A stretch of 23,526 nt of DNA from NCBI GenBank assembly GCA_043814095.1, contig JBDRKI010000067.1, forward strand, positions 1-23,526. Direction: 5' to 3'. The position numbers were made by a program, and so were the translations under genes. Position 1 is the first letter of the stretch, and every line of letters begins with the position of its first letter. The stretch is from Armatimonadota bacterium (GTDB taxonomy: Bacteria; Vulcanimicrobiota; JACPDS01; JBDRKI01). Positions 7,431 to 10,348 of the stretch are shown here, piece after piece. Under the pieces are notes generated by a model that was given only the letters and a program-made list of their open reading frames with translations, did no database searches and was not told the DNA's origin.

Positions 7431-8699
7431 TCAAACTTTTATTGCGGCTACGGTCTTGACTTTGCTCATTGGCATTATCTCCGAATAAGATACAACAGTC
7501 ACATAAGGGAACGTATTTTCAATGATTTTACGCACAAACCTTCTAAGGTAAGGGCTTGTGAGTATGGCTGCTTTTATTCCCAGCGATTCCATGGTTTTCA
7601 GCTTTTCGTCAATGCCTTTTAAAATTTCAAGCGCTTCGCCCGGGTTTATCATTAAAGTGTTGTTTTTTTCGTCAACTTTGTCAAATATAAGTTTTTCCAA
7701 TGAAGGATCAAGAGCAAGAACATTTATATTGTCATCTTTATCTTTAAGTTTTTCGGTAATATACGCTTTGTTGGCTATTCTTATGTATTCCGTAAGTATA
7801 TTGGGATTTGTTGTCGCAGAGAGATTTTCCAGTACTATTTCAAGTATATTTGCAAGGTTCCGTATACTTATTTCTTCCTTTAGTAAATTTTTTAATATCA
7901 GTCTTAAAGAAGCAACCGAAAGATACCGGGGGAAGAGCTCGTTAACCAAAGCCTCGTTTGTCTGTTTTAGGTTTAAAACAAGGTTATATACGTCGGTATA
8001 ACTTAAAAGCCCTGACGCGTTTGAATAAAGTATTTGGCCCAGCTTGTTTTTTATGGTTAAAATATTTTCTTCGCCGCTTATTCCTTTTTCAATCTCTCCT
8101 TTTGAAGCTAAAACTTCTTTGATAAAAATATTATACTGCCATGACCCGAGGGATGTATTAAGTTCCAGTTTAAAAGGAGGAAGGGCAAGCCCCAGGTCCA
8201 ATGCTATTTTTTGTCTCAGATTTAAAAATGATTCTTCCAGGAGTTTTTTTCTGTTGAATATTTCCTGTCCGGCTTCGACCCTGACGGTGTCAATTTCTAA
8301 AGATTTTAACATATCGGATGTCAGCTTTTTATAATCTGTTTCCAGTTTTTTGGCGAGTGGAAGAATATTAACAAACTTTATCTGTTTCGGAGAAGATTTT
8401 GATTTATAAATGAAAGCGAGGGACTGCGCGGCGGGAACGTAAAAGTCCTTGGGAATAGGGTTTCCTTCTTTAAGTTTTGCAAGCATACCCCTGGTAAAAG
8501 TTGAATTTTCTACTACCGGTATGCCTAAGGATTCCGCTTCAAAAAGGAGACCCTCAAATTCGTTTTTAACTGCTTTTTTAAGAACCACAGGGGTTTCATC
8601 TCCTGAATGTTCTAAGGCGACCCCGAAATCTTTGCCGGAAATTATAACTATATCGGCTTTTGACAGGAATGACGCGCTTTTCTTTTTTTCTTTTGCCAT
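7431..8699 (-). CDS. Soluble fusion of an FlhB/EscU cytoplasmic domain and an FlhA/EscV (FHIPEP) cytoplasmic domain
   Basis: aa ~14-99 resemble FlhB-C (ADIVI..FGVAL..PVVLKK..GIPVVEN..GNPIPKDFYVPAAQSLAFIY). aa ~135-422 resemble FlhA-C (RQKIALDLGLALPP, ILKNLLKEEISIRNLANILE, LTEYIR, LDPSLE, LTSPYLRRFVRKIIE, VVSYSEI). No TM segments. RBS GGAGGG. Confidence 0.85.
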   Translation of the reverse strand: MAKEKKKSASFLSKADIVIISGKDFGVALEHSGDETPVVLKKAVKNEFEGLLFEAESLGIPVVENSTFTRGMLAKLKEGNPIPKDFYVPAAQSLAFIYKSKSSPKQIKFVNILPLAKKLETDYKKLTSDMLKSLEIDTVRVEAGQEIFNRKKLLEESFLNLRQKIALDLGLALPPFKLELNTSLGSWQYNIFIKEVLASKGEIEKGISGEENILTIKNKLGQILYSNASGLLSYTDVYNLVLNLKQTNEALVNELFPRYLSVASLRLILKNLLKEEISIRNLANILEIVLENLSATTNPNILTEYIRIANKAYITEKLKDKDDNINVLALDPSLEKLIFDKVDEKNNTLMINPGEALEILKGIDEKLKTMESLGIKAAILTSPYLRRFVRKIIENTFPYVTVVSYSEIMPMSKVKTVAAIKV

Positions 8700-8713
8700 G
8701 TTTTCCCTCCCGG

Positions 8714-10348
8714 TTACATGCTCTCAGGCATATTTACGCCTAAAAGCCTGCCTGTTATGTTTAATACAATCTGTATAGCGGTAATCAAATATATTCTTGC
8801 AAGGGTTAATCCGGGGTTATCCGGATTTAAAACCCTGTGCTTATTGTAAAAAGAATGAAACAGCGATGCCAGTTCCTGGGAATAATGCGTTAACTGATGA
8901 ACCTCAAAGTTTTTGGCGCAGAGAGTGATTAAAAAAGGCAGGGTTTCAAGCTTTTTTATGATATTTATTTCTTCCTTCTGGGTAAGCAGGGTTAAATCTG
9001 CCGAGCTGATATCGGACTTATTCTCGGCTGATTTTAATATGCTGCATATCCTTGCGTGAGCGTACTGGACATAATAAACGGGATTTTCCTGAGACTGCTT
9101 CTTGGCGAGCTCTAAGTCAAATTCCAGATGCGTGTTGGCGGATTTTGTCAAAAATATGAATCTTACGGCATCCTTCCCGACTTCATCGAGCAGTTCCTGG
9201 AAAGTGACCATTTGCCCACTTCTTTTTGACATTTTTACTATCTCCCCGCCCTTGGTAAGCGTAACCAGCTGTCCTATTATGATTAAAAGATCATCCGGAT
9301 TATATCCCAAGCTCTGGAAAGCGCCCTTCATTCTTTTTACGTAGCCGTGATGGTCCGCTCCCCATATATTTATGAGCAAATCAAAGCTTCTCTGCATTTT
9401 GTTAAGGTGATATGCGGTATCGGCCAGGAAATAAGTGCTCTCCCCGTCCTCTTTTATAATAACCCTGTCTTTATCATCGCCGAAATCCGTGCTTTTGAAA
9501 AAGACTGCCCCGTCTTTTTTGTAAGTATGTCCGGATTCTTCCAGCTTCTTTAAAGCTTCATTAACCTTGTTTTCTTTCTGGAGTTGGGATTCATGAAAAA
9601 AGACGTCAAAACGCACATCTGAAGCTTTAAGAGCTTTCAAAATAAGCTTGTTTAACATGTAATCTATGGCGATATTTTTAAATTCACCGGAAGAAGCATC
9701 TTTTAAAGAATCACCCTTTTCTTCTTTAAGCTTATCCGCGAGATCAATAAGATATTCACCGTGGTATCCGTCCTGCGGGAATTCGCATTTTTCCCCCAGG
9801 GACTGGAGATATCTTGCTTTTAATGATTTTCCAAGCAGGTTAACCTGGTTGCCGTAATCGTTAACATAGTATTCCCGGGTTACTTTGTTGCCTGCAAAAT
9901 CCAGGACATTGGCAAGCGTGTCGCCGAGCACAGCCCATCTGCCGTGAGCCAGATGCATGGGACCGGTGGGATTAACGCTTACAAATTCAAGGTTAATTTT
10001 TTTTGCCCCGGGATTATCATGTTGATGCCCGTAATCCAGTTTTTTTTCAAGGACTTCTTTTAATATTTTATGCCATGCATTATTTTTCAGGAAGAAATTA
10101 ATAAAGCCGGGACCGGCAATATCAACTTTCTCAAAAATCCCCTTTTCTATATTTTCTGTAATTTTTGCGGCTATATCACGCGGGTTTATTTTCAGCTCTT
10201 TGGAAAGAATCAAGGCGGCATTAGTGGAAAAATCGCCGTGGGACCGGTCTTTCGGTATTTCAATCTCAGGCGTGAATTCTTCCGGAATTTTATAGCCGGA
10301 TTTTATAAGCGCGTTAATTATGTTTTGTTTTATCTGATCCCTAATCAT
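8714..10348 (-). CDS. argS: Arginine--tRNA ligase
   Basis: HGDFSTN, AGPGFINF, EFVSVNPTGPMHLAHGR (HIGH-like), WGADHHGY, KMSKRSG, YVQYAHARICSI. Confidence 0.98.
   Translation of the reverse strand: MIRDQIKQNIINALIKSGYKIPEEFTPEIEIPKDRSHGDFSTNAALILSKELKINPRDIAAKITENIEKGIFEKVDIAGPGFINFFLKNNAWHKILKEVLEKKLDYGHQHDNPGAKKINLEFVSVNPTGPMHLAHGRWAVLGDTLANVLDFAGNKVTREYYVNDYGNQVNLLGKSLKARYLQSLGEKCEFPQDGYHGEYLIDLADKLKEEKGDSLKDASSGEFKNIAIDYMLNKLILKALKASDVRFDVFFHESQLQKENKVNEALKKLEESGHTYKKDGAVFFKSTDFGDDKDRVIIKEDGESTYFLADTAYHLNKMQRSFDLLINIWGADHHGYVKRMKGAFQSLGYNPDDLLIIIGQLVTLTKGGEIVKMSKRSGQMVTFQELLDEVGKDAVRFIFLTKSANTHLEFDLELAKKQSQENPVYYVQYAHARICSILKSAENKSDISSADLTLLTQKEEINIIKKLETLPFLITLCAKNFEVHQLTHYSQELASLFHSFYNKHRVLNPDNPGLTLARIYLITAIQIVLNITGRLLGVNMPESM

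Follow-up and report, generated by a model that had tools for sequence, protein, structure and literature searches.

The cytoplasmic C-terminal domain of the flagellar export protein FlhB (FlhB-C) also occurs in stand-alone paralogues such as H. pylori FlhX (HP1575) and B. subtilis YlqH, which we take to have a 'spare part' role. Within the export apparatus, FlhB-C recognises early substrates, and an FlhB-C-sized density lies atop the nonamer formed by the cytoplasmic domain of FlhA (FlhA-C), as described in a 2026 preprint, where FlhB-C on the ring is seen as low-resolution density only (bioRxiv 10.64898/2026.06.13.732081). Chaperones dock on FlhA-C between subdomains SD4 and SD2 (PMC8213127). 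In Salmonella, FlhB's C-terminal domain, once cleaved, and a membrane protein named Fluke maintain the early mode of the apparatus, and FliK-driven ejection of that domain flips the specificity switch (PMC13344023). Here we describe a gene found in a 23,526-nucleotide stretch of DNA from an Armatimonadota bacterium (contig JBDRKI010000067.1 of assembly GCA_043814095.1; hereafter the window), which joins an FlhB-C-like and an FlhA-C-like domain in a single chain of 422 amino acids (aa; hereafter the fusion), the NPTH autocleavage motif of the one and the D2 subdomain of the other being absent.

A Pfam scan matched Bac_export_2 and FHIPEP in the single 422-aa chain, as an initial annotation made from the letters of the window had anticipated, with the FlhB-C-like part at aa ~8-100 and the FlhA-C-like part at aa ~117-422. 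When a profile of 16 family members was compared with solved structures, it matched FlhA-C (3mix) at E 5e-58 and FlhB (6s3l) at E 4e-15. The AlphaFold2 model of the fusion, computed from 16 sequences, had a mean predicted local distance difference test (pLDDT) score of 83.3, with a disordered segment at 101-116 between the two halves. Foldseek searches with this model returned FlhA-C and SctV-C structures as top matches (75 at E<=0.001), the best being B. subtilis FlhA-C 3mix (E 6e-25; template modelling score by target, 0.82). The linker carries a conserved motif, [IVL][RK][FYLIV][IVL][KR], in 35 of 36 members, read as QIKFVN in the window's fusion. Since the highest 19-residue Kyte-Doolittle mean in the protein was 1.13, the fusion has no transmembrane segment, which agrees with the annotation's view of it as a soluble protein.

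The N-terminal half was recognisable as FlhB-C by sequence: Bac_export_2 (PF01312) aligned at aa 8-97 with positions 244-335 of its 335-position profile (E 4e-9; 36.6 bits against a cut-off of 24.4), and relatives of the fusion reached E 6e-17 on the same profile. The domain had thus been correctly named. Residues 14-97 aligned with residues 261-346 of the FlhB encoded by the same genome at 30% identity, and it is this alignment that places S21-G22-K23-D24 at the NPTH position, where the annotation had read the same four residues. NPTH was found in 0 of the 34 family members having residues at the site. Since the motif is absent across the family, the FlhB-like half is not expected to autocleave into CN and CC. 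The four-helix membrane domain that precedes FlhB-C in FlhB is also missing (the profile match is confined to 244-335 and no hydrophobic segment was found), and on the NCBIfam equivalog model for FlhB the fusion scored 25.3 against a cut-off of 349. The positions equivalent to E. coli FlhB A285/P286/A340/L343, which we assume to form the hydrophobic pocket of FlhB-C, are occupied by T/P/A/L in the fusion; across the family, P is kept in 36/36, A in 33/36 and L in 26/36 members. These residues would fit retained binding of early substrates, but may simply be structural.

In the C-terminal half, FHIPEP (PF00771) matched in two stretches, corresponding to profile positions 311-404 and 455-654 of 657 (E 9e-51). 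Fusion residues 122-422 aligned with residues 356-706 of the same genome's FlhA at 24% identity (E 1e-30), with a single large gap of ~45 residues opposite FlhA 444-488, and in the alignment of the family profile to 3mix the aligned chain jumps from residue 118 to 171. Sequence and fold matches therefore identify D1, D3 and D4 of FlhA/SctV, and D2 is missing, with a gap of ~45-50 residues relative to own-genome FlhA, E. coli FlhA and 3mix alike. The spacing between ASKGEI and NKLGQIL, put at about 14 aa in the annotation, is exactly 14 residues (EKGISGEENILTIK). In E. coli K-12 FlhA numbering the gap spans ~433-483 and removes D456 and F459, and the position of T490 is occupied by asparagine in the fusion. 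We take D456 and F459 (Salmonella/E. coli numbering) to belong to the chaperone-docking site. All 36 fusions show this gap, as do four further relatives of a FliG_N type (see below). The eight-helix membrane domain of FlhA with its FHIPEP loop was not found, the profile being matched over 311-654 only and the chain having no transmembrane segment, and the score on the FlhA equivalog model (NCBIfam TIGR01398) was 159.6 bits against a cut-off of 772.1. Lacking the membrane domains, NPTH and D2, the fusion does not, in the functional sense, belong to either the FlhA or the FlhB family.

The source genome (2.5 Mb in 129 contigs, 99% complete) also encodes a canonical flhA (714-aa frame) and flhB (367 aa), which adjoin fliQ and fliR on another contig. 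Therefore, the fusion is a paralogue, or extra copy, and not the organism's gate. Two additional partial copies were observed in this genome (G000). One, likewise soluble, is a 458-aa FlhA-C paralogue (contig C4, locus L002, 1369-2745, minus strand), which keeps D2 (with DPTF instead of DPAF) and sits on a very long branch of the tree. Its N-terminal ~85 aa belong to no known family, and its tail is rich in lysine; its neighbours are presumably pgi-like and rph-like, as named by eye from their translations. The other is a stand-alone 96-aa FlhB-C gene (contig C55, locus L007, 1468-1758, minus strand) with NKFL in the NPTH position; the gene just before it encodes a FliK-like protein of 478 aa, whose Flg_hook score of 24.9 bits stays below the cut-off. 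The two open reading frames (ORFs) that follow the 96-aa gene resemble rod proteins in an N-terminal motif.

The fusion is not confined to this genome. At 45-67% identity it has seven relatives of 422-437 aa, each with both Pfam domains, and 9 of 40 relatives in our genome collection matched it end to end at 30-39% identity, one of them cut by a contig end; all seven collection relatives that were scanned (7/7) showed both domains and the two-stretch FHIPEP pattern. Among 401 sampled genomes of the phylum, 20 had a match at E<=1e-40, and tblastn on retrieved loci added G049 and G097, so that the fusion occurs in at least 22/401 genomes, spread over 12 of 21 families. The sample includes 12 unpublished genomes (G230, G247, G212, G370, G263, G344, G245, G275, G177, G328, G359 and G391), which have neither the fusion nor the membrane partner described below and count only in denominators and among the 360 FHIPEP-positive genomes. 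A profile search of 1.84 billion cluster representatives (50% identity) gave 13,849 matches at E<=0.001, chiefly ordinary FlhA; of the best 150, ~22 aligned end to end as a single stretch. Ten representatives were looked up, and the two with NCBI names ('FHIPEP family type III secretion protein' and 'hypothetical protein') sit on metagenome-assembled genomes labelled Chloroflexota and Armatimonadota. In a protein atlas, both Pfam families occurred together in two clusters (54 and 86 members), labelled most often Vulcanimicrobiota and Spirochaetota. A scan of public genome contigs with the family alignment found no relative. As for the lineage, a DnaE scan gave no more than 42-48% identity, to many phyla, and a FlaA (PF04620) search yielded no match, nor any in its control genomes. 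A long form of 577-610 aa with an N-terminal extension occurs in four genomes (G007, G013, G019 and G025).

Six residues (P37, G170, E304, R307, R386 and E407) do not vary among 36 members. A maximum-likelihood tree was also inferred for the FlhA-C part, from 64 rows hand-chosen from the matches, with the D2 columns excluded. Thirty-five fusions fell on one side of a branch with a Shimodaira-Hasegawa-like approximate likelihood ratio test (SH-aLRT) value of 100, apart from 13 canonical FlhA and 11 D2-retaining soluble forms; P0234, a long-branch fusion with an added AAA domain, fell outside this group. Judging from the tree and the alignments, the family arose from a single fusion of FlhB's cytoplasmic domain to that of FlhA and is old and conserved. 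The initial annotation had named, as what would overturn it, a misassembly or an unconserved remnant of a deleted flhB-flhA locus. Such an origin was a possibility a priori only, and we now give it hardly any credence: the same architecture recurs, with both losses, across 12 families (at least 22 genomes) and among the 150 best cluster representatives (~22 of them). Since the gene is conserved, its frames are intact and its origin in the tree is single, misassembly and gene decay are ruled out. One DNA run gave a single 248-nt contig (8561-8800) and nothing over the fusion's domain junction.

Soluble FlhA-C bodies are found in other arrangements as well. Large-genome relatives (G045, G053, G061, G075 and G091) contain 7-14 FHIPEP matches per genome, and the architectures include TPR-FlhA-C-HEAT proteins of 1089-1369 aa, proteins with two FlhA-C copies and HEAT repeats, FlhB-C+FlhA-C+AAA ATPase, and D2-less FlhA-C with a FliG_N-like region (P0141, P0161, P0172, P0201, P0163, P0234 and P0148). 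The FliG_N match of the D2-less relative was weak, no single stretch passing, and may reflect generic helical repeats.

Compared with the C-terminal domain of FlhA/SctV (3mix, 3a5i, 7amy), the fusion is alike in D1, D3 and D4, in sequence and in fold; it differs in having no transmembrane domain, FHIPEP loop or D2 and in adding an N-terminal FlhB-C domain. Its likeness to the C-terminal domain of FlhB/SctU (6s3l, 3b0z) runs from the strand before NPTH through the C-terminal helix and includes the pocket-equivalent residues, whereas the four-helix membrane domain and NPTH are missing and the domain shares one covalent chain with an FlhA-C body. Stand-alone FlhB-C proteins (TIGR00789) are likewise soluble and coexist with a full FlhB, but they are only ~90-100 aa long and have no FlhA-C body, and on that model (flhB_rel) the 422-aa fusion scored 19 bits against a cut-off of 117.35. 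The nearest functional parallel may be the early-mode locks of Salmonella, FlhB C-terminal domain plus Fluke, which similarly pair an FlhB-C module with a small membrane protein and act at FlhA, with the FlhB-C module defining early-mode export (PMC13344023); the likeness is our own analogy. Unlike these locks, the fusion carries an FlhB-C that is uncleavable and joined to a copy of FlhA-C, and its partner is a four-helix, double pleckstrin homology (PH)-like membrane protein unrelated to Fluke. The annotation did not know the architecture as a characterised one, and in a full-text literature search, which leaves most subscription journals outside, we too found no description of an FlhB-C/FlhA-C fusion or of soluble FlhA-C paralogues. 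Domain-architecture databases may well list the combination of Bac_export_2 and FHIPEP. Most likely, the fusion is an accessory factor in flagellar protein export that has yet to be described.

The annotation had also pointed to the membrane protein encoded downstream, and that pointer proved well placed, as the gene pair is conserved. In 14 of the 20 genomes, and in G049 and G097 as well (16/22), the gene immediately behind the fusion is a homologue of the partner, encoded on the same strand after a gap of some tens of bases. Of the six remaining genomes, four (G007, G013, G019 and G025) are those with the long form of the fusion. The partner has four hydrophobic helices in two pairs, and its model (pLDDT 86.3) consists of two repeats, each a transmembrane hairpin, then a beta-sandwich, then a helix. 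Searches of Pfam and NCBIfam at E<=1 assigned it to no family apart from one chance-level match (0.28), and fold searches returned PH-domain proteins only, with weak scores (best E 9e-4; EROS, template modelling score by target 0.50). Complex prediction for fusion and partner gave a score of 0.00, which counts neither for nor against binding. The pairing is frequent, not obligatory. Since the partner also occurs without the fusion, it is not a dedicated anchor.

Within the window, the plus strand carries hypF, hypD, a DUF3800 gene, hypE and hypA, and the minus strand the partner, the fusion, argS, a protease of the HtrA type and mgtC; dnaE and a Fic gene lie further on. The fusion had been placed directly behind argS, and indeed begins 14 nt after the argS (8714-10348) stop codon at 8714-8716. 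This neighbourhood was not seen at nine related loci (flanks of ~1.5 kb). A GNAT acetyltransferase gene follows the long-form fusion in G019, the one scanned, and the ORFs behind the other long forms start alike. The DUF3800 gene (4174-4824, plus strand) sits between hypD and hypE of an otherwise ordinary hydrogenase maturation cluster. A 142-aa ORF (19575-20003, plus strand) gave a weak GGDEF match (24.0 bits); next comes a gene of the Fic/DOC family, with a Fic_N domain (20250-21404, plus strand). Coordinates of the fusion, its parts and its partner are given in the table.

Table. Positions in the window of the fusion gene, its component regions and the adjacent partner gene.
Feature	Position	Strand	Remarks
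Whole ORF, soluble FlhB-C/FlhA-C fusion	7431..8699	(-)	422 aa + stop; ATG start
GGAGGG ribosome-binding box	8705..8710	(-)	5 nt upstream of ATG; read from sequence
FlhB-C-like domain	8400..8678	(-)	aa 8-100; P37 invariant, A91 and L94 conserved (36 members)
S21-G22-K23-D24 in NPTH position	8628..8639	(-)	by alignment to own-genome FlhB
Linker	8295..8399	(-)	aa 101-135; low model confidence at 101-116; end aligns with FlhA linker region
FlhA-C D1-like, first part	8091..8294	(-)	aa 136-203
Short loop EKGISGEEN, in place of D2	8064..8090	(-)	aa 204-212
Remainder of D1, with D3- and D4-like	7434..8063	(-)	aa 213-422; E304, R307, R386, E407 invariant (36 members)
Downstream partner gene	6331..7419	(-)	362 aa, 11 nt past fusion stop; two repeats of transmembrane hairpin + PH-like domain

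With two domains, two losses, a single origin, purifying conservation and a frequent membrane partner in hand, we considered what the protein might do. Our leading but tentative reading, drawn from comparison of sequences, is that the fusion most likely assists or regulates type III export in the flagellar system. It would be a covalent, uncleavable and non-ejectable imitation of the early-mode arrangement of FlhB-C on the FlhA-C ring, and would be unable to dock late chaperone-substrate complexes. Whether by co-assembling with, or stacking on, the FlhA-C ring, or by binding early substrates or the FliK ruler, it would bias the passage from early to late export or set its timing. In most carriers, the co-transcribed four-helix, double-PH partner may hold it at the membrane.

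Several observations weigh against a role in export. The link to flagella appears to be one of domain ancestry alone. The annotation's statement that the window has no flagellar genes was borne out (0 of the 16 other ORFs by Pfam scan), and the relatives examined adjoin housekeeping genes, a GNAT or the membrane partner, and no flagellar genes. The D2-less FliG_N-type relative in G008 also has non-flagellar neighbours (dnaB, rplI, ssb, an aminotransferase, DUF72 and ShlB/TPS). The fusion aligns only unreliably with the FlhA linker (FlhA-L), whose W354 has no evident counterpart in it. The partner occurs in 48/401 genomes and is hence commoner than the fusion, which it lacks at ten fetched loci. 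Phylogenetic profiling against the canonical gate, which the annotation had suggested, found a full-length FHIPEP protein in 20/20 carriers (two cut by contig ends), but it had no power: such a protein is present in 360/401 sampled genomes, and therefore co-occurrence of fusion and gate says almost nothing. A proposal that the fusion occurs only in flagellates was dropped, as the largest family of the phylum (f12) has FHIPEP proteins in 266/297 genomes. In this family (e.g., G011, G023 and G035) the FHIPEP protein scores ~E 1e-190, and no match to the fusion's FlhA-C part was found at E<=1e-3; by these scores, its gate proteins must either have an unusually divergent cytoplasmic domain or belong to an injectisome branch.

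An alternative that we consider unlikely, and still the strongest competitor, is that the fusion has left flagellar export and, as a repurposed scaffold, forms its own, possibly ring-shaped, membrane assembly with the double-PH protein, in a process unrelated to export, for example homeostasis of the envelope or membrane, or quality control of proteins. The gene context is housekeeping throughout, soluble FlhA-C occurs in many non-flagellar-looking architectures including the TPR/HEAT and AAA fusions, and the signature functional elements have been lost from both halves. The partner stands beside the fusion in 16/22 genomes and elsewhere, in one family, adjoins what we take, by resemblance, to be mla-like transport genes. 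Against such a departure, FlhB-C pocket residues and many FlhA-C motifs are kept, a canonical gate is present in every carrier examined (weakly informative as this is), and both domains come from one machine, in which they are in contact according to the preprint (bioRxiv 10.64898/2026.06.13.732081).

If the fusion does act on export, it might do so undocked. As a free cytoplasmic decoy or buffer, it would titrate early substrates through the FlhB-C pocket, or the C-terminal domain of FliK, and so delay or tune export switching. The protein is soluble, with no transmembrane segment, its pocket residues are retained, and an uncleavable FlhB-C would be expected to stay in one conformation (compare PMC13344023). 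However, this version would leave unexplained both the co-transcribed membrane protein and a complete D1-D3-D4 body of FlhA-C, conserved at 300 residues, and the genome already has a stand-alone 96-aa FlhB-C beside a FliK-like gene; we regard it as improbable. Slightly more doubtful still is a 'mock gate', a free-standing ring of D2-less FlhA-C bodies each bearing a permanently uncleaved FlhB-C and held at the membrane by the double-PH protein, which would capture rod-/hook-type substrates or FliK and set when, or at how many sites, gates switch.

The placement of FlhB-C on the FlhA-C ring, and the cross-talk between the two, is a live question. Because it would be uncleavable and unable to dock late chaperones, the fusion could be a tractable object for solving the FlhB-C/FlhA-C interface. 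The soluble FlhA-C body emerges as a reusable module, joined to FlhB-C, an AAA ATPase, a FliG_N-like region or TPR/HEAT arrays. As an accessory of export, the fusion could point to a regulatory layer absent in model organisms, and the mock gate, if true, would represent a new class of type III secretion regulator made from copies of the machine's own parts.
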